Positions 32,476-49,194 of a DNA stretch of 49,336 nt are shown here, one piece after another. Every line of letters starts with the position of its first letter. Position 1 is the first letter of the stretch. A program made the position numbers and the translations under genes. The notes below the pieces were generated by a model. The model searched no databases. It worked only from the letters and a program-made list of their open reading frames with translations, and was not told the origin of the DNA. This DNA is from Escherichia phage FCWL1. The stretch lies in sequence record PP558327. The stretch is one strand, 5' to 3'.

Positions 32476-33981
32476 ATGGCTTTATATCGACGCGGTACTG
32501 CATCAATGGATGCAGACGGAACGGTTCACGGAACCGATACAAAATGGAAAGACCAGCTTGCTCTTATTCGCGTAGGTGCAACTATCGTGTTCCTTGAGCA
32601 ACCAATTAAGCTAGCTGTGATTAGCGATATCGTTAGTGATACAGAATTAAAGGCTATCTCTACTGATGGTCAGACTGCCGATGACGGTAAGTATGTGATC
32701 CTACTTAATGACTCTCTAACCGTTAACGGATTAGCTCAAAACGTCGCCGAGACTCTTCGATACTATCAAAGCAAAGAGACTGAGATTGCGGCAGCTATAG
32801 ACCTGATAAATCAGCTTGATATGAATAAACTTGAGCAAATAGTTGCTGATGTGAATCAGGCGAAATCTGATTCTCAAGCTGCGCAAAATCAGGCTGAATT
32901 AGCGCGTGACGATGCGGTAAGCTCAAAAGATGCGGCTGCGGTAAGTGCTCAAGAAGCAAAAGACGCAGCTAACAGCATCAATGCTGAAAATCTTTTAACT
33001 AAGGATGGCAATTTAGCTGGTCTTGAGGATAAAAAAGAGTCAAGAAAAAATATTGGGTTAGGTGAAAATGATGCTGTTAACTTTCTTGCTATTAACACCA
33101 CTGGCGCTATAGGTGCAGGAAGGAATTCATGGGACGGTTCTAGCTGGGGTAGTCAGTCCATATTGTCATCATTGATGATTATGTCACCTGATGGAATATC
33201 TACGCCAGGTATTTACGTCAGAAAAGAACGTAGCGATAATGGTTATGCTGGGGCTTTATTATTTTATGAGGGGGCAAACTACTTCGAGACTAACAATAGA
33301 TTCAGAGCTAATCAGTTTTTATGCCAGAAAACATCTATGGGTTACAACCAGATGTGGTCTGCTTCATGCTTCCAGGGTAATGCTTACACCGCTGATAGTG
33401 GTGCTGAAAACTATCAATCACTTATTGCTGGATCGTGTGGCACCAGAGGTCAGGGATACGTTGGCGGCGTAGCATTTGGCATGATGACTACGGGTAATCC
33501 TGAATGGCCCAGGGCACAAATATCAGTAGGCACTCAAGATAGGGATGGAGCAGGCAATATTGGTCTGCAAATGCATTTCAGGTTTATGGCTTCAGGGCAA
33601 ATATCTTACGCTGGACCGCAAGGGGCTGGAAGTTTCCAACAGGTTCCGGCATCTGACAGAAATATAAAGCACGGCATAAAGGATGATGAATCAAGCATTG
33701 CATACAACAACATAAAATCAATGAGATTTAGGAACTTTATATTTAACGATGATGAGCAAGAAAGGGTAAGGAGAGGTGTTATAGCTCAGGAGATAGAAGA
33801 GATCGACAATCTATATGTTAAGAGAAGGGTGTATGAGAGCCACGAGCTAAACGGGCCAAAAGTTGAAAGGCTTGAGCTTGATACAACTCCTTTATTGCTT
33901 GACACTATGAGAGCTTTACAGGATACAATAAAGAAAGTTGAAGAGTTACAAGAAGAGATAAAAATGTTGAAGTCCAAATGA
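32476..33981 (+). CDS. side tail fibre with C-terminal intramolecular chaperone (peptidase S74-like) domain
   Basis: C-terminal ASDRNIKHGIKD...IAQEIEEI... coiled-coil matches auto-cleaving chaperone domains of tail fibres/endosialidases; start placed after terminator (track ORF 32275 over-extended across ssb). Confidence 0.65.
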   Translation: MALYRRGTASMDADGTVHGTDTKWKDQLALIRVGATIVFLEQPIKLAVISDIVSDTELKAISTDGQTADDGKYVILLNDSLTVNGLAQNVAETLRYYQSKETEIAAAIDLINQLDMNKLEQIVADVNQAKSDSQAAQNQAELARDDAVSSKDAAAVSAQEAKDAANSINAENLLTKDGNLAGLEDKKESRKNIGLGENDAVNFLAINTTGAIGAGRNSWDGSSWGSQSILSSLMIMSPDGISTPGIYVRKERSDNGYAGALLFYEGANYFETNNRFRANQFLCQKTSMGYNQMWSASCFQGNAYTADSGAENYQSLIAGSCGTRGQGYVGGVAFGMMTTGNPEWPRAQISVGTQDRDGAGNIGLQMHFRFMASGQISYAGPQGAGSFQQVPASDRNIKHGIKDDESSIAYNNIKSMRFRNFIFNDDEQERVRRGVIAQEIEEIDNLYVKRRVYESHELNGPKVERLELDTTPLLLDTMRALQDTIKKVEELQEEIKMLKSK

Positions 33982-34081: not shown

Positions 34082-35002
34082 ATGATGTTTCAGAAAGAGG
34101 ACGTTTTGCCGTACATGAAGGGGTTATGGCGCGAGGCTTTCCAATCAATCTGCGGATTGCCGAATGATGTTTTTAATAAGAAACACCAACCTTGCCCTAA
34201 CTGCGGGGGTAAGGACCGCTTTCGCTGGACTGATAACCTTAACACTCCGGGCGACGGCGGTGCGATCTGCAACTCATGCGGTAACGACTCTGGAGTCGGT
34301 TGGTTGATTAAATTAACTGGTATGCCGTACAGCGAATGTATAAATATCCTGGGAAGATTTCTCGGCAAGGTTCCGCAGGAATACATTGTCAAGGTCAACA
34401 AAAAAGCGCGAAGAACTCCGGTAGCTGGCGTCAATGTTATGATGGCAGAACACGAGGCAGTGATGAAAGTTATGGAGCGCACAGAGAAGCGCATAAACAC
34501 ACCTCTAAGCATGTTTGAGTCGCTACCTACTGAATCATTCGACGTTGGCGTAAAACGTCGAGAGGATGGCGGCGAGAGTGTATTTCACACCATACCATGT
34601 CAACTTGTACACGAGGACGGTCTTGATGAAGAGTTTTGCAATATTTTGATTATTGATGAGGAGGGTAGGGAGTCATTTTATGCAAAGAAATACACAAGTT
34701 GCTCGGTTGCCGTGACTGGTAAAACTGAAAAAGCGATCTACTTATGCCTTAATTGGATTGATGCTCAGCATATTGCATTTCACACAAAGCAAGAGGTATG
34801 GGCCTGCTTCACTCCTGAAAATCTAGAAATGGTTGCGTACAGATACAAGGGAGATCGGGAGGTAAGGGTGGCGTGCGAACCATCTGATAAAGAAACTTTA
34901 TACATGGCAGACGACAGACAATTAAAAATAATCATCCCGAATCAGGGAGGATACCGCTCAGGAATGCAAGCTAAGTTATTCTCAGCAAGTGATCTACTAT
35001 AA
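34082..35002 (+). CDS. primase-type zinc-ribbon protein (putative DNA primase)
   Basis: CPNCGGKDRFRW...GDGGAICNSCG Zn-ribbon typical of phage primase N-termini; start codon uncertain (hairpin directly upstream, no SD). Confidence 0.5.
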   Translation: MMFQKEDVLPYMKGLWREAFQSICGLPNDVFNKKHQPCPNCGGKDRFRWTDNLNTPGDGGAICNSCGNDSGVGWLIKLTGMPYSECINILGRFLGKVPQEYIVKVNKKARRTPVAGVNVMMAEHEAVMKVMERTEKRINTPLSMFESLPTESFDVGVKRREDGGESVFHTIPCQLVHEDGLDEEFCNILIIDEEGRESFYAKKYTSCSVAVTGKTEKAIYLCLNWIDAQHIAFHTKQEVWACFTPENLEMVAYRYKGDREVRVACEPSDKETLYMADDRQLKIIIPNQGGYRSGMQAKLFSASDLL

Positions 35003-35051: not shown

Positions 35052-35531
35052 ATGTTAACCCGCTACGCGTCGTTTGTTATGAGTATTCAACGTATCGCAG
35101 AGTCAACTGGTGAAATCGATAAACGTCACATCAATGGTAACAACGGAACACGACGCGGTAAAGATAAAAAGCCTCGACAGCGCTGCGGCTTCTATATTCA
35201 TAAAGAAGAAACACGCGCCGGATTGCGAGCGCGACTTGATGCGCTTATCGAATATTATGGTGGCCCTGCGGCCTGCGCAAAAGCTCTAAAGGTTAGCAAT
35301 CAGACGGTGCAAGGCTGGAAAGAACGCAACATGATTTCGTGGCAAGGTGCTGAAGCTGCGCATCGTGCTTACCGACGACAGGGGTGTAAAGGATTTCGTG
35401 CCGCATGGTTGCGATTCGACCTGAAGTTTGACGGTAACGGCAAGTGCCTTGAGAAGCGATGCAAGAACAAGAAATTTATGCGCGTCGTGAAGAAGGAAGA
35501 TATCGGGACGACCAATAGCATTTTTAGTTAA
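35052..35531 (+). CDS. HTH DNA-binding protein (Cro/YdaS-like), candidate regulator
   Basis: Segment YGGPAACAKALKVSNQTVQGWKERNMISWQGAEAA matches Cro/YdaS-type helix-turn-helix pattern; start uncertain. Confidence 0.4.
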   Translation: MLTRYASFVMSIQRIAESTGEIDKRHINGNNGTRRGKDKKPRQRCGFYIHKEETRAGLRARLDALIEYYGGPAACAKALKVSNQTVQGWKERNMISWQGAEAAHRAYRRQGCKGFRAAWLRFDLKFDGNGKCLEKRCKNKKFMRVVKKEDIGTTNSIFS

Positions 35532-35543
35532 CTTAATTCTCCT

Positions 35544-35586
35544 ATAGCACTTTTTGCTAAAAACGTTTACTGTATGCCGTGTATTA
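35544..35586 (+). promoter_or_regulatory. promoter cassette (TAGCA-CTTTT-TGCTA, 9-bp hairpin, TATTAT)
   Basis: Perfect palindrome, 22-bp spacer, AACGTTTAC/GTAAACGTT hairpin enclosing TATTAT; upstream of helicase. Confidence 0.5.
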
Positions 35587-35624
35587 TAGCGTAAACGTTA
35601 CAACGATTCAAAGGATTAATAGAC

Positions 35625-37643
35625 GTGACAATGAACATTAAAAAGCAGATTGCATTACTTGGCGAGGACTATATAAAGCGAACTCAGGAGCGATTCACTG
35701 TCGGTGAGGTTGTTCCTTATCCGTACCAGGTTGTTGCTTATGCTGAGATCGCGAAACGCCTATCAAATTACGAGCATCCATTCTTTGTTAAAGCGTCAGT
35801 ATCTGCTGGTAAGACCATCATTTTTGCTATGGTTGCAAAGCAGTGTCAGAAAATGGGCTTAAAAATGCTCGTTCTGGCTCGCCAGGGTGAGATTGTCGAT
35901 CAGGATAGCGAGGAGATTGACAACTTTGGGGTAACTAACTCCATATTCTCAGCCTCATTAGGTATTAAGTCCTGCTATTTTCCTATCGTGGTAGGCTCAG
36001 AGGGTACTGTTGCAAATGGCCTCGACAATGAGCTTGCTGATTTCGTCCCGCATGTAATTGGGATCGACGAATGTCACCAGGTGGATTGGGAAGACCTTGC
36101 GCAAGCCATTGAGGGCAAGGAAACAATGGAACAAATGAGGGGCGAGAAGGGAAAAATCATCATGGATGGAGATATTCCCCTGATTGGTAATGATGGAAAA
36201 CCTTTGCTTGGGACTAAGCGCAGTCAGTACACAATCGTAATCATGGAAATGATGCGGCGCTGTAAAAAGGTTCACGGTCACGATCTCAGAATATTTGGTA
36301 TGACTGGATCTGAATTTCGTGGCGTAGTTCCTATTCTGGTAGAGAATCCGAAAGCATTGGGATTCTGGCGTGAGCGAGTAACTGATATCGACACAAACTA
36401 TCTGATTGAGTTCGGTTCTGTTGTGCCGACAATATTCGGTTCAACAGACGGAGTTCATTACGATCTGGATAAGTTCAAGGCGTCGAGCGAGGACGGAGTG
36501 CAGGACTTTACAGAGAAAGACATGAAGGCTATGGAAGATGAGATCCTTCATGATAAATCTCTTACTCAGCGAATCATGCAAATGGTTGCCAAAAAGGCTG
36601 AAGAGCGTAACGCGGTACTGATTACATGTGCTGGTGTGCGCCACTGCAAAGAGGCAGCGGCAGCACTTCCTCCGGGAAGCACCTATGCAATTATTACTGG
36701 CGACACAGACAACAAAACGCGCAAGAAGATTCTGGACGATGTAAGGGCCGGAAAAATTAAATACACCTTTCAGGTAATGGCGCTCACTACTGGTGTTAAC
36801 GTTCCAAATTGGGATTTCAGTGTCATACTCCGCAAAATAGGGTCGCTCACACTGTTGATTCAACTTTTGGGTAGGGGTATGCGTCTGCTTAAATCCTGGC
36901 AGGTTGCTGAGGGAATGGTTAAGCAGGACCATCTGGTATGGGATTTCGCAGGTACGATGGATGAGTTGGGCCAGCTTTATTTCGATCCGATACTTGAGCA
37001 GGCGCAATTCCAAAAGCGTTTTGAAAACGGCAAAGATCCGAAAACATGTCCGAAATGCGGTTGCGTAAATAGCTTCTATGCTCGACGATGCGTTAATGTC
37101 ATTGATGGTGAACGTTGTGATCATTTCTGGACTTCTCAGGTTTGTGAGGACCAGGTTGACGAGCGCACCGGAAAAATCCTTGTTAAAGGATGCGGCGCAG
37201 AGAATGACGTTGTGGCCAGAGTCTGTCGTTGCTGTGATGTTTCGCTTGTCGATCCTAACCTGAAGTTATCCGGTAAGGCGTACACTAAGAATGACTGGTA
37301 TGAAGTAAAGAATTTTGAGGTTACGCTAACCAAAAACCAGAAAGGCATAATATACAAATACACTCTTATTAACGATGATGGTGATGAGTTCAAGGCGTAT
37401 GAAAAATTCTTCCCCGAGTCTGACTCTAAGATTTGCGGTACGCTATGGAAAACTAAAGGTGTATTGCCACACGTATCGGATCCTAAAATGCGCCGATACT
37501 TTATCGGAATGAAGAACGCCATCAAGATTTTGCAATACTCACATCATATTGCTCACCCGGTGCGCGTAACTCATCGTCGCAACCAGAAGAAAGAAGATAT
37601 TATCTCACGAAAAGACTTTGGTATGGAGGATATCCCGGAATGA
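35625..37643 (+). CDS. SF2 DNA helicase with C-terminal Zn-ribbon region
   Basis: Walker A SVSAGKT, DECH box (IGIDECHQV), C-terminal CxxC clusters. Confidence 0.75.
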   Translation: MTMNIKKQIALLGEDYIKRTQERFTVGEVVPYPYQVVAYAEIAKRLSNYEHPFFVKASVSAGKTIIFAMVAKQCQKMGLKMLVLARQGEIVDQDSEEIDNFGVTNSIFSASLGIKSCYFPIVVGSEGTVANGLDNELADFVPHVIGIDECHQVDWEDLAQAIEGKETMEQMRGEKGKIIMDGDIPLIGNDGKPLLGTKRSQYTIVIMEMMRRCKKVHGHDLRIFGMTGSEFRGVVPILVENPKALGFWRERVTDIDTNYLIEFGSVVPTIFGSTDGVHYDLDKFKASSEDGVQDFTEKDMKAMEDEILHDKSLTQRIMQMVAKKAEERNAVLITCAGVRHCKEAAAALPPGSTYAIITGDTDNKTRKKILDDVRAGKIKYTFQVMALTTGVNVPNWDFSVILRKIGSLTLLIQLLGRGMRLLKSWQVAEGMVKQDHLVWDFAGTMDELGQLYFDPILEQAQFQKRFENGKDPKTCPKCGCVNSFYARRCVNVIDGERCDHFWTSQVCEDQVDERTGKILVKGCGAENDVVARVCRCCDVSLVDPNLKLSGKAYTKNDWYEVKNFEVTLTKNQKGIIYKYTLINDDGDEFKAYEKFFPESDSKICGTLWKTKGVLPHVSDPKMRRYFIGMKNAIKILQYSHHIAHPVRVTHRRNQKKEDIISRKDFGMEDIPE

Positions 37644-38056
37644 TTACAGACAAAGGTGATTATTTAGAATTTTACGAGAGAGATCCAAGCGACACTCGAA
37701 AGGAGGACGCTCATCAGGTGGATTGTGTATCCTGGCTGAAATACAATTTTCCTCACCTTCTATTTTGGCACACTGTCAATGAAGGTGAAAAAACAATCAC
37801 ATCGGCGCTCAGGGATGAGCAGGCCGGATTACTTAAAGGCGTGTCAGACTTCGTTATCCTGATTGGTGTTAACTCACGATACCCGTTTGCAGCAATCGAA
37901 CTTAAGCGGGTTAATAAGTCAGGCAAAGGAAAGGCGTCACCAGTCAGCGACAAGCAAAGGGAATTTCTCCAAAAGGTCCGGGAGCGTGGCGGCTTCTCTG
38001 CCGTCGCATACGGATTCGGGCAATTCAAGATCGCAATTTACGAAATGATGAAATAG
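37640..38056 (+). CDS. VRR-NUC domain nuclease
   Basis: PD-(D/E)XK-type motif GVSDFVILIG...AAIELKR; ATGA overlap with helicase. Confidence 0.65.
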   Translation: MITDKGDYLEFYERDPSDTRKEDAHQVDCVSWLKYNFPHLLFWHTVNEGEKTITSALRDEQAGLLKGVSDFVILIGVNSRYPFAAIELKRVNKSGKGKASPVSDKQREFLQKVRERGGFSAVAYGFGQFKIAIYEMMK

Positions 38057-38099
38057 CACTTTTTGTTAAAACTGCCGGGATGGAATCTGGCATTATTAT
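38054..38099 (+). promoter_or_regulatory. promoter cassette (TAGCA-CTTTT-TGTTA, hairpin, -10-like ATTATT/TATTAT)
   Basis: Palindrome overlaps VRR-NUC stop; GCC hairpin; leader AAAACGAGAGGAAT. Confidence 0.45.
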
Positions 38100-38123
38100 C
38101 TCACCAAAACGAGAGGAATAAAA

Positions 38124-38837
38124 ATGAAAGACTTTAATGATATCGAAACTATCGACTTTGCAGAAACTGGTTGCTCATTCACTCGCGAAGCAATAGCATC
38201 AGGCGGTTATTATCAGGCATTGAAAACGCCAACCTGCAAAGAGATTTCAGGGCGTCGATACAAGGGGACAAATACCCCTGACGCTGTTCGTGATTTATGG
38301 TCAACCCCGCGCGAGGTTATCGCATACCTTGAGGGTCGTTACGGAAAATATGATCTAGACGCTGCGGCAAGCGAAGAAAATAAAGTTTGCGAGAAGTTTT
38401 ATTCCCAGGAAACAAACTGCTTAAAACGTTGGTGGGGTAAAAATAAGCACGTATGGTTAAATCCTCCTTATAGTCGACCTGATATATTCGTCAAGAAGGC
38501 GATCGAGCAAATGGAGCACAACAATCAGATTGATATTCTGTTGCCTGCCGATAATTCCACAGCGTGGTTTACTGAGGCGAGACAGAACGCGGCTGAGATT
38601 ATCTGGATTGAAGCTGACTTGACTGAAGATATCGACGGTAACGAGTACGCCAGATCTGGTCGCCTGGCTTTCATATCCGGTGAAACTGGAAAGGCGGTTG
38701 ACGGCAATAACAAGGGTTCGGTAATTTTCATAATGCGCGAACTTAAAGAGGGTGAGACACAGCAAACTCACTATATCCCAATCACAAGCATTTGCCCTTC
38801 GGTGAAAAACAAGCGCGCAAAAGTGAGGAAAGTATGA
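38124..38837 (+). CDS. dam: DNA N6-adenine methyltransferase (phage Dam family)
   Basis: Catalytic NPPY motif (VWLNPPYSRPDIF) and conserved LWSTPREV N-terminal motif. Confidence 0.75.
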   Translation: MKDFNDIETIDFAETGCSFTREAIASGGYYQALKTPTCKEISGRRYKGTNTPDAVRDLWSTPREVIAYLEGRYGKYDLDAAASEENKVCEKFYSQETNCLKRWWGKNKHVWLNPPYSRPDIFVKKAIEQMEHNNQIDILLPADNSTAWFTEARQNAAEIIWIEADLTEDIDGNEYARSGRLAFISGETGKAVDGNNKGSVIFIMRELKEGETQQTHYIPITSICPSVKNKRAKVRKV

Positions 38838-39085
38838 TGAACGAGAAAATGATTCCGGTTAAGTTAACTGATCAAGGTTTATGGCTGCTTTATCGAGCTA
38901 CCTGCTGCGAAATCATGGAACAAAACGGATTGACGCAGGATGTTATTGGTTGCGATCTGTGGGAGTTCACTAGCTCTCTTGATATGTCTTTCGATGAGAT
39001 AAAAAATGAATACATAGAGAATTGGCCTTCAATCATACAGAGAGACGTAGAGGAACTTAAAGCTGATATGATCGTTCAGCACTAA
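38834..39085 (+). CDS. hypothetical protein (83 aa)
   Basis: ATGA overlap with dam stop; RBS GAGGAAAG. Confidence 0.45.
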   Translation: MMNEKMIPVKLTDQGLWLLYRATCCEIMEQNGLTQDVIGCDLWEFTSSLDMSFDEIKNEYIENWPSIIQRDVEELKADMIVQH

Positions 39086-39119
39086 TTGCTAAAACTACCC
39101 GGCGAAAGTCGGGTATAGT
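39077..39119 (+). promoter_or_regulatory. promoter cassette (CAGCA-CTAAT-TGCTA, hairpin, TATAGT)
   Basis: 22-bp spacer with CCCGGCGAAAGTCGGG hairpin; leader CATCGAGACGAAATGAGGAAT. Confidence 0.5.
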
Positions 39120-39151
39120 TATTTCATCGAGACGAAATGAGGAATCAAAAG

Positions 39152-39361
39152 ATGGCACGCATTAACGCAAACTTTTTCAATATCGCTCAACAGTCCGCAA
39201 AAATGGCTGTTCATATCACTGACAAGAAAGGCGGCAACTTTGATTGGGATATTGCTATGAACTTCCTTAAAATGGCTTATTACCTCTGCTCAGTCAAAGA
39301 TGTTGAGTGTTTTATTGAAAGCGTGGAGAAACCAACCAATGCTGATAAAAAAACAAGGTAA
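39152..39361 (+). CDS. hypothetical protein (69 aa)
   Basis: ATG after RBS in conserved leader. Confidence 0.4.
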   Translation: MARINANFFNIAQQSAKMAVHITDKKGGNFDWDIAMNFLKMAYYLCSVKDVECFIESVEKPTNADKKTR

Positions 39362-39611
39362 ACGAGAGGTTTGGGATCACGCGAAGGAGTGCGGAATCTC
39401 AGACGATATAGCACTAATAGCAAAATATTTCGATATAAAGGATGTTAGCATCATCTCAAACGGAAAGATTTCATTTATGGAAGATATGCCGAGAAAAATG
39501 CATAGAGTGCCAGCCACCCCATCACTTGAATTTTATCGTGAAGAAGGAAAGAGAATTGAGCGAGAACGAAAAACAGCAAAGAACAACAAGTCTTCCAGGC
39601 TTAAACATTAA
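39339..39611 (+). CDS. hypothetical protein (90 aa)
   Basis: Overlapping ORF; weak RBS. Confidence 0.3.
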   Translation: MLIKKQGKREVWDHAKECGISDDIALIAKYFDIKDVSIISNGKISFMEDMPRKMHRVPATPSLEFYREEGKRIERERKTAKNNKSSRLKH

Positions 39612-39843
39612 CGCAGAAGATTATCAGACTATCTGGATCGGAGAAAAGCAGGTTAAGAAAATCCCTTTCTCTGATTGGTTGCCTCCTGACTTCGTTAATG
39701 TGCTTTGCACCATCGGTATGGAACAGGAGTTGCATATAGGTTATTACTCACCAGGTAGAAACAGCATAATGCTTGAGGTTGATGGGAAACTTGTTGAGTT
39801 TAAATCTTCAGATCTCGGATTCTGGTTAAAGGCTGTGGCATGA
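39442..39843 (+). CDS. hypothetical protein (start uncertain)
   Basis: ORF overlapping previous; true start possibly internal. Confidence 0.3.
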   Translation: MLASSQTERFHLWKICREKCIECQPPHHLNFIVKKERELSENEKQQRTTSLPGLNINAEDYQTIWIGEKQVKKIPFSDWLPPDFVNVLCTIGMEQELHIGYYSPGRNSIMLEVDGKLVEFKSSDLGFWLKAVA

Positions 39844-39921
39844 ATCTTTATTTTGCTGTAGTATTAACACCGCTAATTTCATTTTTAGTAATGTATTTCA
39901 TTATCATGTAAGGATTAAAAT

Positions 39922-41073
39922 ATGTCACAAGCTAAAATCACTACCGAACAACTTGTCGAAGAGCGCATGAACGGCCTAACACTTCGCGAGATCGCGGAAA
40001 AGTACGGTATGCACATTCGAACTGTTGAAGCTCGCCACGCAAAGTTGGCAAAAGAAGGTCACTTCCACGGTAACGAGCATGTTGCTAAGAACGTACCGGA
40101 AGGATTCATGGTAAAAGGCACATCAACGATGATTCGCGGCGATGGGACCGAGGTGGTGCGCTGGGTTAAGACCGATCAGGACCGTGAGAAGATTGCAGCA
40201 ATGATGGAAGCGGCGCGTATTGCATTCTGTGAAGATCTGCCGCGAGCAAAGCCAACTGAGCTACTAACCTCACAAGGGCTTACTACAGCGATGGGTAAGC
40301 TGGCACTCTATCCGGTATTCGATCTTCATATTGGCGCGCTTGCTCATAAGCATGAATGCGGAGAGAACTATTCTACCGATGTAGCGGAAAAAGTGCTGAG
40401 TGACTTCTTTAATTACGCGATCGATATTGCTCCGAACGCAGAGAAGGCTGTTCTGTTAATCGGCGGTGACTTCCTGCACTCTGACGGACTTGATGCAGTT
40501 ACTCCGGCAAGCGGTCACGTTCTTGATCAGGATTCACGATATGCTAAATTGGTGCATGTAGCGATTCGATCGGTGCGACGAGCTATAGACAAAATGCTGA
40601 CGAAACACAAAGAGGTCGAAGTTCAGGTTATCGAAGGAAACCACGACCAGGCCGGGATGATTTGGTTACGCGCAGCAATGGCAGCATACTATGAAGACGA
40701 GCCGCGAGTATTCGTTGACGTCAGTCCTATGATTCTGCATAAGACTCGTTGGGGAAATACCTTGTTGGGATACACTCACGGGCACACTATGAAAAAGGCA
40801 GACACGCGACTTGCAGCGATGGCAGCAGATTTCCGATCGGATTTCGGCGAGAGCAAGTATGTGTATACTCATAGCGGGCACTGGCATCACCAGACAATCA
40901 CTGAGCACTCGCTAGGTATTGATGAAGTACACGGTCAGTTAGGCGCGAAAGATGCATACGCAGCACGCGGAGGGTGGCGCTCATATCGCCAGGCGGCGGT
41001 AATTGTTTACGATAAGCAGTTTGGTGAAATCGGTCGATTCATCTATCGTCCAGAAATGACAGGATCGCACTAA
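39922..41073 (+). CDS. N-terminal HTH fused to calcineurin-like metallophosphoesterase
   Basis: HTH-like LTLREIAEKYGMHIRTVEARHAKL; phosphoesterase motifs DLHIG, GGDFLHSD, GNHD, GHTM, GHWHH. Confidence 0.6.
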   Translation: MSQAKITTEQLVEERMNGLTLREIAEKYGMHIRTVEARHAKLAKEGHFHGNEHVAKNVPEGFMVKGTSTMIRGDGTEVVRWVKTDQDREKIAAMMEAARIAFCEDLPRAKPTELLTSQGLTTAMGKLALYPVFDLHIGALAHKHECGENYSTDVAEKVLSDFFNYAIDIAPNAEKAVLLIGGDFLHSDGLDAVTPASGHVLDQDSRYAKLVHVAIRSVRRAIDKMLTKHKEVEVQVIEGNHDQAGMIWLRAAMAAYYEDEPRVFVDVSPMILHKTRWGNTLLGYTHGHTMKKADTRLAAMAADFRSDFGESKYVYTHSGHWHHQTITEHSLGIDEVHGQLGAKDAYAARGGWRSYRQAAVIVYDKQFGEIGRFIYRPEMTGSH

Positions 41074-42536: not shown

Positions 42537-42551
42537 GCCTCCTTTTCTTTT
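42520..42551 (+). terminator. terminator hairpin (AGGAGG...CCTCCT) + T-tract after lysis cassette
   Basis: Stem-loop containing spanin stop codon, followed by TTTTCTTTT. Confidence 0.5.
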
Positions 42552-42595
42552 GCGACAAGGAGGGGGAGTTACTCCTTCACGTAAAAAGGTACAAA

Positions 42596-42638
42596 TAGCA
42601 CTTTTTGTTAAAACACCCGATCTCGCATCGGGTATATT
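42596..42638 (+). promoter_or_regulatory. promoter cassette (TAGCA-CTTTT-TGTTA, hairpin, TATATT)
   Basis: 22-bp spacer with CCCGATCTCGCATCGGG hairpin; leader CATCGAAACGAAACG. Confidence 0.5.
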
Positions 42639-42672
42639 TGTTTCATCGAAACGAAACGACCTGAAGGAAAAC

Positions 42673-42891
42673 ATCACGGCTAACAAATTTTTAGTAGTTC
42701 GCGTTTACAATCACTCAAACGGTACTAGCAGTGAGATTCCTACTCTTTACAGTAAAGCTGATGGGTGGACCGAAGAATCAGCGGTAGCTAACGAGAAGAA
42801 GGTTGCTGAGATGTACGGTGACACTTGCGAGTTTGAAGTTCGAGAATATGCAAAACTCACTAACGAGAGTTACATGTGGGCAGATGCATAA
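42673..42891 (+). CDS. hypothetical protein with apparent non-AUG start (ATC/ACG) or start-codon mutation
   Basis: Conserved cassette and GAAGGA SD present but the codon at the expected start position is ATC-ACG; ORF open to 42891. Confidence 0.3.
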   Translation: MTANKFLVVRVYNHSNGTSSEIPTLYSKADGWTEESAVANEKKVAEMYGDTCEFEVREYAKLTNESYMWADA

Positions 42892-42927
42892 AGATTATGC
42901 TCGCTTTCGTTACTGGCCCTCATTGAA

Positions 42928-43362
42928 GTGAGTAACAGACTCAACAACCCTTGCATGCTGCTTCTTCTAGATCTGTTCATATTCTGCGAAGGTTACGACA
43001 AATACACTCGACAGCACATAGCGAAATTTATATACGCCCACAAGGAAAGTGAGCGATTTGCTAAGGCTGCTGGAATGACTCGCCGTGAATTTACAAGCGC
43101 GCTATCTAAGGAGTTTTGCGCTCGTTGCGTGACTGAGGGTTACTTAGATCGCAAGGATGGAGTTTACTGGTGCAAGGGAAAGATTAAGCGCCCGGTAATG
43201 ATGAAGCTGATGTGTATTGATGGCTACAACAATCGGTATACGTGGGAAATGATGCACATTGGAGAGATGAGTGATGAAGATTTGTTTGGCGAACGTAGAA
43301 ACATTGATAGATCGGAACGTCGAATTGTGCGCAAGGCTCCAGCTTACGAAAGAAGAATTTGA
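42928..43362 (+). CDS. hypothetical protein (144 aa)
   Basis: GTG-initiated ORF; basic C-terminus. Confidence 0.4.
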   Translation: MSNRLNNPCMLLLLDLFIFCEGYDKYTRQHIAKFIYAHKESERFAKAAGMTRREFTSALSKEFCARCVTEGYLDRKDGVYWCKGKIKRPVMMKLMCIDGYNNRYTWEMMHIGEMSDEDLFGERRNIDRSERRIVRKAPAYERRI

Positions 43363-44935
43363 ATCAATGTTTAATATTAAGCCAAAACTGAATTACCAAC
43401 AGATTATTGAGATCGCCAATAGCACTGGAGTTAATCCGGTGGCGATCGCAATTCGTGAAAACAGCTATGGTGACTCAGTTTCATTTTGGCAAGATCCGAT
43501 CGATATCAATAGCGGCAACGATAAGTTCCCTCTGATTTCGTTAGGTGGCGATAACCTGGTATTCGAATATGCAAAAGCAAAAGCTGAATCAGTCCAGTTC
43601 CCGGTTTCATCCGCGTATGCTCATTTTATAGGTTGCATCTCAGCCGCGATGCTCGGGAAGTTTTGGGTGCAATATCACGGAGAGGAACAGCCGACCGCGC
43701 TTTACATGGTAATCAGCCAGCCACCATCAACAGGTAAGTCCGCGATTAACTCAGCGGCGATTACACCTATGCGTGCGGAGATTCAGCGACTGAATGAAGA
43801 GCGCAAAAAGGAACGTATTCGTTTAACCAGTCAGCTACGCCAGGTTGAGAAGGAAATCAAGAATGATCCTAAAGGAAACACGACTGCGGCACTATGCGAG
43901 GACAAAGAAAAACTGGAAGAGAAGATCAAAAAGATGGCTGATATTGTTTTTGCTGTATCAGATCCTACACCTGAAGGTCTTGCGAAAGTAGCCGCTGTTC
44001 AGGGCCACTTTTCCGTAATTTCTGATGAGGCAACGGCAATCAATACATTGCTCGGTCTTACGTATGGAGGTTCAGATAAGAAATCTAACAGTGAGCTTAT
44101 TCTTAAGGCGTGGGATAAAAACCATATGGAGGTCGCTCGCTCCAATCAGGACAACAACTTGTCTCTTTGCCCGGTTGGCTCGATCTGCGTAATTGCGCAG
44201 GATGAAACAATCAAAGGTATCATGGACGCAGGCCAACGAGGTATCGGTGTATCTGAGCGCTTCCTGTTAGTTCGCGAGGAACCGCTTTTAGGTACTCGTA
44301 TTCTTTGTGATGAAAATGGTGATGCATTGTATAAAGAAGTCGATCGAGGACTGGTTAGCAAATATTACAGACTCGTTCACAACATCATGAAGGAGGAAAA
44401 CGTTGTTCTCTCTGTAAGCCGTAATGCTATGCGTGAATTAAACCTTGCGCGTCAGGCGATGGAACCGGATTTCGCCGCAGGTGGGAAATACTCTCACTCA
44501 ATGCTACGCGGTCATCTCGGCAAGTTCGATAAGCACGCCTTGCGTATTGCTTCAGTTCTCCACACGATCAAGAATTGGGAGGGTGAATCACCGAACCGTT
44601 CCAACCGTGAGATTGACCTTGAAACAATGCAGGAAGCAATCATGATCTTCAATGAGCTTTCCAGGACTTATCTGTCGTCTGCCAGCGCTGCCGGGTATGC
44701 TGGTGATGAGGCTGAATCTCGTAAGCTGATTGATGTTATCACTGAGATCGCGAAGAAAAACAAAGGCCGCGCACCTATTCATAGCATCGTTGCAAAGTGC
44801 CGGAACGTTACGCCTTTCAACGGTCAACAGAAAGTATCTGAGCGAATCGATAGTCTTCTTATCACGCTCGAAGAGATGAACTACACTTGCCGGATTGATG
44901 ATATTGTTTTCATTAATCCTCGGCTGATGGGTTAA
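43271..44935 (+). CDS. large protein with deviant P-loop (QPPSTGKS), possible NTPase
   Basis: 554 aa; Walker A-like STGKS and hydrophobic-Asp Walker B-like IVFAVSD; start may be the internal ATG near 43367. Confidence 0.4.
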   Translation: MMKICLANVETLIDRNVELCARLQLTKEEFESMFNIKPKLNYQQIIEIANSTGVNPVAIAIRENSYGDSVSFWQDPIDINSGNDKFPLISLGGDNLVFEYAKAKAESVQFPVSSAYAHFIGCISAAMLGKFWVQYHGEEQPTALYMVISQPPSTGKSAINSAAITPMRAEIQRLNEERKKERIRLTSQLRQVEKEIKNDPKGNTTAALCEDKEKLEEKIKKMADIVFAVSDPTPEGLAKVAAVQGHFSVISDEATAINTLLGLTYGGSDKKSNSELILKAWDKNHMEVARSNQDNNLSLCPVGSICVIAQDETIKGIMDAGQRGIGVSERFLLVREEPLLGTRILCDENGDALYKEVDRGLVSKYYRLVHNIMKEENVVLSVSRNAMRELNLARQAMEPDFAAGGKYSHSMLRGHLGKFDKHALRIASVLHTIKNWEGESPNRSNREIDLETMQEAIMIFNELSRTYLSSASAAGYAGDEAESRKLIDVITEIAKKNKGRAPIHSIVAKCRNVTPFNGQQKVSERIDSLLITLEEMNYTCRIDDIVFINPRLMG

Positions 44936-44992
44936 CACAATAAACTCCTTGGTTGACGGTGTAAATGATACACCGCCAATGGTACACGCGTT

Positions 44993-45007
44993 TTGCAAAA
45001 AGTGCTA
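44993..45007. promoter_or_regulatory. palindrome TTGCA-AAAAG-TGCTA abutting start codon of 45012 gene
   Basis: Operator-like site ends 4 nt before ATG; no canonical SD. Confidence 0.4.
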
Positions 45008-45011
45008 TTGG

Positions 45012-45428
45012 ATGAAATCCATCAAACTTAAATGTACTTCCGCAGATAAAATCACAGGATTTGAAGTAAACAACCTGTACAAAGGTCGTGAGCGCTATGA
45101 TGGCACTCGCGAAGTAAAATTAAAATGCGGAAAGTATTTAAAACTTGAAAAGCATGATGAATTACAGATTCACGGATCTGATGAAATCTTCTTCGCGAAG
45201 TTCGCTGAGTTGAAAACAAAGACGCTCAAGTGCACCGGGCTTGACCATCGTAATCCGATGAAAAAATCATTCAAACTTGGCAAGCGTTACCAGGTGGAAA
45301 GCGGTCGCGCTCTCGGCGGCGTAGCTGGTTATATTTTTGATGAGGATGGTTGTCGTTGGACATTGTTTCGCGAAGAGATCGGTTTTAGCATAGCTGACGG
45401 CACAACCTTTGAGGCCAAATACTTATAA
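45012..45428 (+). CDS. protein with two copies of the KxxC repeat domain
   Basis: IKLKCTSADKITGFEVNNLYKG and KTLKCTGLD...KLGKRYQV...YIFDEDG match the 4167/7312/41137 pattern. Confidence 0.45.
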   Translation: MKSIKLKCTSADKITGFEVNNLYKGRERYDGTREVKLKCGKYLKLEKHDELQIHGSDEIFFAKFAELKTKTLKCTGLDHRNPMKKSFKLGKRYQVESGRALGGVAGYIFDEDGCRWTLFREEIGFSIADGTTFEAKYL

Positions 45429-45492
45429 TGCGTTAGCTCCTGATTGGTTATCTTGAATAAGGTCACTTTATCAAATGACCTTACGGCAATAT

Positions 45493-45507
45493 TAACAAAT
45501 CGTGCTA
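45493..45507. promoter_or_regulatory. palindrome TAACA-AATCG-TGCTA abutting ATG 45509
   Basis: Operator-like site ends 1 nt before start codon. Confidence 0.4.
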
Positions 45508-45508
45508 T

Positions 45509-45721
45509 ATGGAACAGGATAATTTCTGGACTCGTTATTTTGCAGCGCTCGATGCCGGGCTTGGTGCGGAATGGTGTATCAAGGTTGCATATAAAGAAAT
45601 TACGCTTGACGACGCGCTAGGGAATATGGATATGGACGCAGAAAGTGAATATAATCCCGACTTCGATATGCCAGGCGATGATACTGGTGATAATGACGAC
45701 GACGATTATATTCCCTGGTAA
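45509..45721 (+). CDS. small highly acidic protein with SSB-tail-like C-terminus (DDDDYIPW)
   Basis: 70 aa, about 30% Asp/Glu; C-terminal DDDDYIPW resembles SSB tip DDDIPF. Confidence 0.45.
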   Translation: MEQDNFWTRYFAALDAGLGAEWCIKVAYKEITLDDALGNMDMDAESEYNPDFDMPGDDTGDNDDDDYIPW

Positions 45722-45724
45722 TAA

Positions 45725-45949
45725 ATGAGCATTAAAGTTGAGAATATCATCAAGCATCTTAACGCAAAAGGCCGTGTAGTTATCAAGATGGATAAGTCTT
45801 CCGGTTTTATTTCAATGACGGTAACTAAGACGCGTAACGGAAATAGCGTTATCGGAAGTGTACCGGGATCTCGACTGATAAATGCAACAGATGCGGATGT
45901 TCGCGCAACGCTTGAGGATAACTCGATTTACATTAATTCATGGAGCTAA
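45725..45949 (+). CDS. hypothetical protein (74 aa)
   Basis: ORF 3 nt after previous stop. Confidence 0.4.
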   Translation: MSIKVENIIKHLNAKGRVVIKMDKSSGFISMTVTKTRNGNSVIGSVPGSRLINATDADVRATLEDNSIYINSWS

Positions 45950-46011
45950 TTTTAATTCCTTTGTTTTGTTTGGTGTGTGAGTAATATACCTTACTCACTA
46001 TTTATTGTCTT

Positions 46012-46026
46012 TAGCAATTAGTGCTA
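46012..46026. promoter_or_regulatory. palindrome TAGCA-ATTAG-TGCTA abutting ATG 46027
   Basis: Perfect half-sites; preceded by 8-bp hairpin GTGAGTAA/TTACTCAC. Confidence 0.4.
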
Positions 46027-46347
46027 ATGAACCACACTTATAAAATCACAACGAAGTCACCGAAGATTAACGGAAGCACGGTTGCGGCGCTTAATAACGC
46101 GGCAGCAATCCACGAAAAAAACATCATGGAGCGCGTGAAGGCGGCAGTAGGCCGATTCTATGGAATCAACGCCGACATTGCTGACAGCAAGCGACTGTTC
46201 AAATACGTGCCAGGTCATCCATATAGCCGGATGATTGATATTAAGCATGATAAAGAACTGGTTCGAATAGGTTCGCTTAGCATTGACGAGTTTGACCATA
46301 GCATTAACCTTGTGACGGCGTATCAAACCTGGGACGGTAAAAAATGA
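46027..46347 (+). CDS. hypothetical protein (106 aa)
   Basis: ATG immediately after palindrome. Confidence 0.4.
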   Translation: MNHTYKITTKSPKINGSTVAALNNAAAIHEKNIMERVKAAVGRFYGINADIADSKRLFKYVPGHPYSRMIDIKHDKELVRIGSLSIDEFDHSINLVTAYQTWDGKK

Positions 46348-46503
46348 TTTATATTCACACTTTCTATACTGGCAAATTTAACAGCGTAAAAAATGTTCGC
46401 GTTTACGATAGTCACCAAAAAGCAATGATGCAGAAAGTAGTTCTAGGTGGAACAATCAAGGAGTGCCAAGTAATTTCCGAGTACTGATATTCCCCCTAAC
46501 CAG

Positions 46504-46875
46504 ATGCTTAAACAATTCGTAGACCTGGACTTCTCAGCAAGCACAGCAATCCAGACTGACGAGAAAGAGAACGTAGCGATCGAGAACATTGCGCGCAAGA
46601 TTTACAACAAGCAAGAGAAGGCAGTGAGAGCCGCTCTAAGCGCTTATTACGGTGTAAGTGATGCAATGGAGTGCGTGAACCGAGTAACGCGCGTGGCGGA
46701 CCATTCTGGCGCGTCTCGTTTCGTAGATAACGATACTGGAGAGATGATAATCCAGCTTAACAATCCATCAATGCGCACTGAACTTGGCAATATTGCATTG
46801 TGGGGTGTGGCTAACTACTCAATCACCGTCAACTCCTGCATTGCGGGTCGCGTCAAGGAGGCATTATATGAGTGA
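46504..46875 (+). CDS. hypothetical protein (123 aa)
   Basis: ORF; weak resemblance to 46027 product. Confidence 0.4.
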   Translation: MLKQFVDLDFSASTAIQTDEKENVAIENIARKIYNKQEKAVRAALSAYYGVSDAMECVNRVTRVADHSGASRFVDNDTGEMIIQLNNPSMRTELGNIALWGVANYSITVNSCIAGRVKEALYE

Positions 46876-47068
46876 TAATATTTACCGCGTGGTTGCGATC
46901 TCACGCAGGACGCAAAAGAGCGTAGTTGCCTACATGGGAAATGGCGCAATTGAGGCAACAGACGCATTCGAGCTACTGAAGAATAACGAAGGATTTATGA
47001 ACACGTTCCGCGTTAGACTTGAGCGTCTTGAACCTGTTATCATTGATGAAGCGAGAAAGCTATCCTGA
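46868..47068 (+). CDS. hypothetical protein (66 aa)
   Basis: ATG overlapping upstream stop. Confidence 0.35.
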   Translation: MSDNIYRVVAISRRTQKSVVAYMGNGAIEATDAFELLKNNEGFMNTFRVRLERLEPVIIDEARKLS

Positions 47069-47127
47069 GGTGATTGCCTCGTTTTCTGTTGATGGGAGAA
47101 CTATAGCAGCCCTCCCGCATTTTCGTT

Positions 47128-47142
47128 TAGCAAAAAGTGCTA
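47128..47142. promoter_or_regulatory. palindrome TAGCA-AAAAG-TGCTA abutting ATG 47144
   Basis: Same sequence as site at 105-119. Confidence 0.4.
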
Positions 47143-47143
47143 T

Positions 47144-47329
47144 ATGAAAACAAAATTAGTTCATAAATCAGAAATCAAGATCGGCGATACCGTGATTCAC
47201 AACGGAGAGCTTAAAACTGTTGGCAAGGAGTCAATAACCAACGATGAATTTATGGGTCTGTTATTGTTCGGGGACTCCTATCGACTTGGTTACAAAATGG
47301 TTGAGCTTGTTGAAGATGTAAAATTCTAA
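47144..47329 (+). CDS. hypothetical protein (61 aa)
   Basis: ATG 1 nt after palindrome. Confidence 0.4.
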   Translation: MKTKLVHKSEIKIGDTVIHNGELKTVGKESITNDEFMGLLLFGDSYRLGYKMVELVEDVKF

Positions 47330-47357
47330 TTACTGGCCTGTTAAACCGATCGAGTTT

Positions 47358-47372
47358 TAACAAAAAATGCTA
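47358..47372. promoter_or_regulatory. palindrome TAACA-AAAAA-TGCTA containing ATG 47367
   Basis: Start codon lies inside the palindrome. Confidence 0.35.
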
Positions 47373-47726
47373 TCAGCAATCGCTTTGAAAAATCCACGAG
47401 GATATAAGGAACGTATCAGCTTCGTTTTGGCAGACTTGCCGCCCAGCTTGTTTTGCTGTGCAGAGTACCCGTCAGGCAGGCTTACAGGTTTTCTCTCGGG
47501 CATGACAAAATCGATGGAACCAAAATTTGAATGTGCCGTGCAATGCATTAGCGTTAGCACCGACAGCTTCACGAATCAATCAGTGTATGAGATCTACCTT
47601 ATTGATGGTGGGTACTTCGCTACTGACAATCAGCAAAATCAGATCGGCGTTTTCCGCTCAATGAATGGATGGGATCGCTTCCTGACCAATAACGGGCAGA
47701 CGGTATTCAAAGAGGTAACGAAATGA
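47367..47726 (+). CDS. hypothetical protein (119 aa)
   Basis: ORF; overlaps downstream gene by ATGA. Confidence 0.4.
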   Translation: MLSAIALKNPRGYKERISFVLADLPPSLFCCAEYPSGRLTGFLSGMTKSMEPKFECAVQCISVSTDSFTNQSVYEIYLIDGGYFATDNQQNQIGVFRSMNGWDRFLTNNGQTVFKEVTK

Positions 47727-48271
47727 AATTAATCTGGTCGCTATTTGACGGTTCCGGTCTTGCAGGTCATGAACTGGCTAAGCAAGGTCATAAGGTGATG
47801 TGCTTCAACTTTGACGGAGCCGATCACGGAGATTACGAAAAGTACAATGCCAGAGTGGAGCATCCGAACATTGAGTATGTGAACGTGTTCATTGATGAAA
47901 CGTTCGAACGTGATGCTATCGCTGGCGTGTATGGCAAGCCGGATTTCATTATGGCTTTCCCGCCGTGCACTGACCTGGCTGTTAGTGGTGCGCGACACTT
48001 TGCCAGCAAGCGTGAACGCGATCCGTTATTCCAGGAGAAGGCTGTCGCTAGTGCCCGGATTGCTGCGAACATTGGAGATAGCCTGGGCGTGACTTACATC
48101 ATTGAGAATCCGGTGAGCGCCCTGTCGTCTGCGTGGAGAAAACCAAATCACTCCTTCAATCCCTGGGAGTATGGCGGCTATCTTCCTGAGAATGACTCAC
48201 ACCCCTGGTTCCCGATGTATATTGCGCCGCGAGATGCTTACCCGAAGAAAACTTGTCTTTGGGACCTCTGA
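47723..48271 (+). CDS. truncated DNA cytosine-5 methyltransferase-like protein (182 aa)
   Basis: C5-MTase-like motif I LFDGSGLAG (FxGxG), motif IV-like FPPCTDLAVSG (PC), motif VI-like IIENP (ENV); too short to contain a target-recognition domain. Confidence 0.45.
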   Translation: MKLIWSLFDGSGLAGHELAKQGHKVMCFNFDGADHGDYEKYNARVEHPNIEYVNVFIDETFERDAIAGVYGKPDFIMAFPPCTDLAVSGARHFASKRERDPLFQEKAVASARIAANIGDSLGVTYIIENPVSALSSAWRKPNHSFNPWEYGGYLPENDSHPWFPMYIAPRDAYPKKTCLWDL

Positions 48272-48430: not shown

Positions 48431-48451
48431 TATATTCGCTGATAGGTGAAA

Positions 48452-48494
48452 TAGCACTTTTTGTTAAAGCCCGGTCGAGCGGATCGGGTATTAT
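48452..48494 (+). promoter_or_regulatory. promoter cassette (TAGCA-CTTTT-TGTTA, hairpin, TATTAT)
   Basis: 22-bp spacer with CCCGGTCGAGCGGATCGGG hairpin; RBS CAGAGGAAT; gene at 48527. Confidence 0.5.
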
Positions 48495-48526
48495 CTTCTC
48501 ATTGACACGATACAGAGGAATCGAAG

Positions 48527-48721
48527 ATGGAAACGCAAATTGACGTAGTGGTTGTTCAGCGAGACTCAACTCATGAAAAGGGTCTGTTCAAGAAAGGAAC
48601 CGAAATCACGATCGACCTTGAGGATATGGTTGCGTATCACTCTGGCCTCACTTGGAACGTGGTGCGCGTAGGCAGCGACTACAAACTCAAAGGCTTTAAC
48701 ACTTACTTTGCGGAGGTTTAA
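48527..48721 (+). CDS. hypothetical protein (64 aa)
   Basis: ORF after promoter cassette. Confidence 0.45.
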   Translation: METQIDVVVVQRDSTHEKGLFKKGTEITIDLEDMVAYHSGLTWNVVRVGSDYKLKGFNTYFAEV

Positions 48722-48723
48722 TT

Positions 48724-49194
48724 ATGGCGACAATTACCGTATTTCTTGCTAAAGATGAGCTTGATGGCGAAATGTCATTCTTCGCGTTTGAGCATAAAAC
48801 CGGCTCGCACTGGCACACTTACAGCCATTACACGGTTATCTCAATCGAAGCGTACGACGGCGAACTGCTCACTGATAAACTGAGTAATTTCATTGAAGCC
48901 GTTAAAGCTAGCGGCGGCTGCGAGTGGAAGGAAGATCACGAAGTTATGCGAATGTTTGAGATGGTCAATCCGGTTCGCCTTGAGTCGTTCGAGCTTGATG
49001 CTAATGTGACTATCAAGGTGAGAAAGTCGGGTGAGTTATTGCCAGGGATGCGTGTACTGACTGGTTACTCTGGCCGTAAGGTGTGGCGCACTGTATCCAA
49101 GATTCGCCAGCGCTCGGCAACATGCTATAGCGTATTCTTTGATGATGGTTGGAATATGATGTCCGGTAGTGAGGTAAAGTATCTCACCAAATAG
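48724..49194 (+). CDS. hypothetical protein (156 aa)
   Basis: ORF 3 nt after previous stop. Confidence 0.5.
   Translation: MATITVFLAKDELDGEMSFFAFEHKTGSHWHTYSHYTVISIEAYDGELLTDKLSNFIEAVKASGGCEWKEDHEVMRMFEMVNPVRLESFELDANVTIKVRKSGELLPGMRVLTGYSGRKVWRTVSKIRQRSATCYSVFFDDGWNMMSGSEVKYLTK

Follow-up and report, generated by a model that had tools for sequence, protein, structure and literature searches.

The best described relative of the enzyme considered here is the Dam methyltransferase of phage T1 (M.EcoT1Dam; AAP49979.1 / YP_003925.1), which was purified in 1987 and sequenced in 1990, as cited in PMC10470545; the early T1 Dam work as a whole (1979-1990) is represented here through its citations in PMC10470545 and PMC4319613. 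DpnI still cuts T1 DNA obtained from a dam- host, which shows that the T1 enzyme YP_003925.1 makes G6mATC, and the DNA of CC20, a CRISPR-made dam deletion of T1, was unmethylated and MboI-sensitive after growth on a dam- host (PMC10470545, mBio 2023). According to the same study, host Dam methylates T1 DNA only partly, the T1 and host enzymes have no significant sequence similarity to each other, and the burst size of the T1 dam deletion falls to ~60% of the wild type, irrespective of the presence of the Dnd system studied there (PMC10470545).

Several other enzymes are comparable at different depths. E. coli Dam, T4 Dam and DpnM are alpha-class enzymes (PF02086) with the same chemistry and the same GATC target as T1 Dam, and they share with the Dam protein described here the class-I SAM methyltransferase fold with a (D/N)PPY motif. 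The Dam proteins of the Haemophilus phages HP1/HP2 (172 aa) and of Stx-converting and lambdoid phages are minimal members of PF05869, the family of the present protein. HP2 Dam, whose gene is annotated as an active adenine methylase, is 37% identical to it over aa 49-204 and has the WxTP, DLD and NPPY blocks in common, but two T1-type features are missing from these minimal members, the N-terminal extension of 48 aa and the hairpin inserted at 161-178, and their genes are found in other contexts, after rep in HP2 and near ninB in lambdoid phages. The lactococcal 936-type M.Phi93DAM, an orphan phage methyltransferase with only NPPY recognisable, methylates GATC and blocks DpnII (PMC4190342); its gene belongs to the packaging region of a Gram-positive phage. 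It likely shares the family with the present protein. Lactococcus 936-group phages gave PF05869-like matches of about 36% identity. The cap-specific mRNA adenosine N6-methyltransferase PCIF1 and the gamma-class M.TaqI, M.BseCI and MmeI are only 12-15% identical and much larger, with separate recognition domains, and the likeness is limited to the fold.

The gene examined here lies in a 49,336-nt stretch of Escherichia phage FCWL1 DNA (PP558327), hereafter the window. In the open reading frame list, dam occupies positions 38124..38837 of the plus strand, with the ATG start and the TGA stop both within these coordinates. Its ribosome-binding site, GAGAGGA (38111..38117, plus strand), was read from the sequence 6 nt before the ATG and is annotated equivalently in T1. 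Nucleotide identity over the dam region is 100% with the Tunavirus phiD2-2 (an Escherichia phage of the Drexlerviridae; OR861627.1) and 94.5% with phage T1. The encoded protein has the length of T1 Dam (237 aa) and matches it at 235 of 237 residues, with both exchanges (I138 for M and T212 for V) outside the conserved motifs. At the DNA level, 55 of the 714 dam positions differ from T1 (7.7%), about 52 of them synonymously, and the dN/dS of 0.012 indicates strong purifying selection on dam. The near-full-length identity, the N-terminal extension and the place after a helicase and a VRR-NUC gene identify it as the ortholog of T1 dam.

Family membership was clear from the profile searches. The protein scored 233.6 bits (E 1.4e-69) against Pfam PF05869, "DNA N-6-adenine-methyltransferase (Dam)", far above the curated cut-off of 28.1, and 237.7 bits against the NCBIfam equivalog model TIGR01712, "phage N-6-adenine-methyltransferase" (cut-off 97.05); it also matched phrog_111 (E 4.6e-85). 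Relatives from PF05869 occur in 1,894 of 50,697 phage records, including Haemophilus HP2, Stx-converting, lambdoid, Vibrio and Lactococcus 936-group phages, and a search of 1.84 billion cluster representatives returned 5,481 matches at E ≤1e-3. A protein with 84% identity is filed by NCBI under Ralstonia pseudosolanacearum (protein P0004), an unlikely host of a T1-like coliphage gene, and this entry may be a contamination or a mislabel.

In an alignment of 124 diverse PF05869 representatives, all family-invariant residues (the WxTP block, the DLD-AA strand, NPPY and GRxxF) have their counterparts in the window's Dam. Eleven positions are 87-100% conserved: W59 (90%), T61 (99%), P62 and D79 (both 100%), A82 (95%), N113, P114 and P115 (98-100%), Y116 (87%), R180 and F183. 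The N-terminal block (38298..38372, plus strand), delimited by conservation and an AF2 model, comprises W59-S-T61-P62, helix 63-73 and the strand Y76-D-L-D79-A-A-A82-S. The NPPY motif stands within WLNPPYS at aa 113-116 (codons 38460..38471, plus strand) and is the sole [NDS]PP[YFW] in a scan of all six frames of the window. We take it to be motif IV, the pocket for the flipped-out adenine, a role regarded as established for N6-adenine methyltransferases. A Dam-type methyltransferase with an NPPY motif and a conserved N-terminal block had been proposed at these exact coordinates by the sequence-only reading, and all three points were borne out.

The name Dam is functional here, since the enzyme belongs to the phage family PF05869 and not to the alpha-class family PF02086 of E. 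coli and T4 Dam. PF05869 was the only Pfam family matched at E ≤0.01, with no match to PF02086 (MethyltransfD12), and phmmer against the PDB, E. coli Dam, T4 Dam and DpnM included, yielded only chance matches (E ≥0.9). The alpha-class architecture, in which a recognition domain separates the SAM-binding half (motifs X and I-III) from motif IV, is absent as well: only ~30 residues lie between the motif-I-like strand and NPPY, too few for an alpha-class target-recognition domain. The block at residues 59-82 is a probable combination of motif X with a degenerate motif I that would bind SAM.

The AF2 model was computed from an alignment of 61 sequences with no less than 62% identity to the query and reached a mean pLDDT of 75.5. 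It shows a class-I SAM-dependent methyltransferase (Rossmann-like) fold with a helix at 63-73 and a strand at 78-80; the N-terminal ~50 residues were left unmodelled (pLDDT <50). A Foldseek search with the model returned nothing below E 1e-3. Because the PDB search and Foldseek indicate that no PF05869 structure has been solved, the residue roles proposed here rest on the model and on analogy. In the alignment, two parts of the protein (residues 1-45 and 161-178) stand out as additions found mostly in the T1 type. The extension (aa 1-48; 38124..38267, plus strand), specific to enzymes of the T1 type (Drexlerviridae) and predicted to be disordered or of uncertain structure, had an alignment occupancy of 0.07-0.24 over aa 1-40 and 0.51 at 41-50 among diverse family members. 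It is kept in 60 Drexlerviridae-type homologs, with D3, D6, T9, G27, G28, Y30 and G43 conserved.

We are highly confident that the open reading frame encodes an orphan SAM-dependent ortholog of T1 Dam, which by analogy with T1 would convert GATC to G6mATC on both strands. The gene is transcribed rightward together with replication and recombination genes: the helicase comes first, then the VRR-NUC nuclease, a weak terminator, dam and a small ORF. The compact Rossmann-type core (aa about 55-237) is proposed to bind SAM close to D79, the invariant residue of the DLDAAAS strand-loop, and the target adenine would flip into the NPPY pocket (113-116), where its N6 would take the methyl group. In this manner, Dam would methylate the 236 GATC sites of a rapidly replicating genome on which host Dam alone would leave methylation incomplete. 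The progeny DNA would then be GATC-methylated under any host dam status, resistant to MboI/DpnII-type and sensitive to DpnI-type enzymes. Dam would also raise the burst size, with avoidance of mismatch repair (MutH), replication and packaging as candidate causes. Both the residue roles and this physiological benefit are what we infer.

A different weight was given to the enzyme by the sequence-only reading, which had regarded it as an anti-restriction factor. If this were its main selective function, self-methylated GATC would shield incoming and progeny DNA from MboI/DpnII-type systems. The distribution of restriction sites over the whole window agrees with such protection. GATC was neither depleted nor enriched in comparison with dinucleotide-preserving shuffles (236 sites vs 219 ± 15), whereas the sites of EcoRI (GAATTC; 2 observed vs 20.7 ± 4.3 expected) and EcoKI (AACN6GTGC; 0 observed vs 5.65 ± 2.1 expected) were strongly depleted, a pattern that fits GATC being covered by methylation and not by avoidance. 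CTAG was low too (32 observed vs 64 by Markov expectation, whole window). Moreover, a GATC Dam of the NPPY-only type shields lactococcal phage DNA from DpnII (PMC4190342), and literature cited in PMC8594841 suggests that Drexlerviridae methyltransferases counteract restriction. However, the burst defect of the T1 dam deletion arises in hosts without GATC restriction acting (PMC10470545), phage DNA from dam+ E. coli is already methylated in part by the host enzyme, and in the BASEL data on Drexlerviridae the restriction phenotype did not simply follow from the methyltransferase genes (PMC8594841). Anti-restriction as the main function of dam is thus possible but doubtful. The earlier claim stands insofar as such protection is plausible, but it is not the demonstrated reason for dam. 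The T1 burst defect is independent of restriction. The effect demonstrated for T1 dam is on productivity, with anti-restriction as a reasonable secondary benefit.

It is rather unlikely, in our estimate, that what the T1 type adds to the minimal Dam core of 170 aa (the 48-aa extension, the 161-178 hairpin and possibly a coupled 82-aa protein) confers a property beyond GATC methylation, which could be, e.g., recruitment to the phage replisome or packaging machinery. If true, such a property would explain both the failure of host Dam to substitute and the ~40% burst cost of the T1 dam deletion even in dam+ cells.

The gene order around dam is that of T1. The first gene of the rightward operon (35625..37643, plus strand) encodes a superfamily-2, RadD-like helicase (Helicase_C, ResIII, partial NF053632 RadD, phrog_16). 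Its stop overlaps, as ATGA, the start of the VRR-NUC gene (37640..38056, plus strand), whose PD-(D/E)xK nuclease matches PF08774 (E 4.7e-14), has SDF...IELK in its translation and corresponds to CPTT1_058, annotated as a Holliday junction resolvase in curated T1. A hairpin with a U-rich tail follows between VRR-NUC and dam (38073..38101, plus strand), to which the annotated rho-independent terminator of T1 (NC_005833, 38973-39001) maps; its fold of -13.4 kcal/mol has a z of -1.84, and it is probably a leaky terminator acting as an attenuator. The 67 nt of spacer that precede dam match T1 at every position (100% identity). Downstream, the stop of dam overlaps the start of a small ORF of 82-83 aa (38834..39085, plus strand; T1 gp19 / phrog_2676) as ATGATGA. 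This ORF has a dN/dS of 0.09 vs T1 and is probably translationally coupled to dam. A terminator-like hairpin (39096..39124, plus strand), to which the T1 terminator at 39998-40024 of NC_005833 maps, closes the unit of dam and the small ORF, and a SbcD-like exonuclease (39922-41073) is encoded further downstream.

The order of helicase, VRR-NUC and dam is kept across Tunavirus genomes, including T1, where the terminator and gp19 also take the same places, and in Webervirus Kpph1 with one extra small ORF between VRR-NUC and dam. Kpph1 also has a weakly similar small ORF (pairwise E 3e-5) on the 3' side of dam. Comparison of 37600-38123 with 38124-38837 revealed a mosaic junction at the dam start: VRR-NUC and the spacer are 100% identical to phage SH2 and 98.7% to T1, and dam is 93.6% identical to SH2 and 92.3% to T1, with DELF2 as the closest relative (97.8%). 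DNA matches to "Campylobacter phage" records were discarded: the matching DNA is the VRR-NUC flank and not dam itself, and the genomes so labelled are T1-like. There are 19 such records (A139, A113, A121 and others; 48-50 kb), with MG065681, MG065680 and MG065670 among the matches, and their T1-like VRR-NUC DNA is ~73% identical. The Campylobacter matches to Dam and to the C5-like protein treated below were traced to the same 19 records, which appear to be genomes of Drexlerviridae filed under an unexpected host.

Thus, the VRR-NUC and helicase neighbours named by the sequence-only reading are real, while the DNA-modification and processing cluster that it suggested is not borne out. The conserved gene order is replication-module synteny, and dam sits in the replication/recombination module of its lineage rather than in an island dedicated to modification. 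The truncated C5-methyltransferase-like gene counted to that cluster does exist, in a frameshifted state, but is 8.9 kb off. The ORF of 182 aa (47723-48271, plus strand in the window) has the motifs SLFDGSG (motif I), PPC in PPCTDLA (motif IV-like) and ENP (motif VI-like), and matched phrog_757 "DNA methyltransferase" at E 1e-66, scoring 13.2 bits against Pfam DNA_methylase, below the 22-bit cut-off. Intact relatives of 233-236 aa occur in about 1,500 phage records, and the gene is absent from T1. In native phiD2-2 (OR861627.1, 6568-7261, minus strand), residues 1-180 are in one frame and the last ~57 (KLGGKSAKTKLIRSLYPRGF...) in another, which marks the gene as frameshifted; in the window, the C-terminal part lies at about 47369-47513 on the minus strand. 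Being 8.9 kb from dam, past the lysis genes and natively on the opposite strand, the C5-like gene forms no cluster with dam.

The strands given above depend on the layout of the window, which is about 99.9% identical to phiD2-2, yet not colinear with the phiD2-2 record or T1. Its minus-strand CDSs are each reverse-complemented in place at their borders with the spacers keeping their orientation, so that all genes read on the plus strand, and close to the ends of the window a few segments have changed place. Examples of reverse-complemented or relocated segments are 34082-35002, 35079-35531, 32476-33981, 42549-48271, 894-1127 and 48437-49194. This rearrangement looks like computational processing, not biology. 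The block 35532-41035 with helicase, VRR-NUC and dam is unaffected but for one mismatch; operon and strand arguments outside this block belong to the native record. There, the primase and the regulator just upstream are divergently transcribed. A 522-aa protein encoded at 43367-44935 matched Pfam DUF3987 (E 3.8e-42) and phrog_2373 'DNA helicase' (E 1e-233), the T1 annotation being 'putative ATPase'; with it, the leftward early region would encode a second protein of replication that resembles a helicase.

The adjacency and common orientation of VRR-NUC and dam, kept in both Tunavirus and Webervirus, could also be read as a phage-borne pair resembling a restriction-modification system, in which the nuclease would act on unmethylated DNA and the phage genome would be spared through its methylation by Dam. 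We consider this very improbable and reject it. The VRR-NUC family consists of structure-specific repair or resolvase-type nucleases, in line with the T1 annotation, so that dam is not paired with a gene for a cognate sequence-specific endonuclease, as in type II systems. The nuclease gene is coupled translationally to the helicase, not to dam, from which a terminator-like hairpin separates it, and another ORF stands between the two in Kpph1. The dam family members of HP2 and Stx phages have no VRR-NUC neighbour. Furthermore, the DNA of the host is also GATC-methylated, so this mark could not separate phage from host DNA. With a nuclease that is resolvase-like, helicase-coupled and missing near HP2 dam, the Dam described here is an orphan methyltransferase. 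That dam is in decay or no longer active, or that it targets a sequence other than GATC, is hardly credible: in the related phage JMPW2 it is annotated in two pieces, but here the 237-aa frame is intact with every family-invariant residue and a dN/dS of 0.012, and the protein is 99% identical to the T1 enzyme shown to methylate GATC.

Overall, the identification of dam is correct but ordinary, as the gene is known and has been experimentally characterised in its 99% identical T1 form. For that T1 enzyme, phage DNA grown on a dam- host was already examined by digestion, and by analogy the outcome supports the Dam assignment. The finding brings little new biology and confirms a correct annotation. 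For the phage itself, the DNA is expected to resist MboI/DpnII, to be DpnI-sensitive and to give a 6mA signal in long reads. GATC methylation is thereby relevant to cloning, to methylation-based host assignment and to the sensitivity of the phage to methylation-dependent defences.
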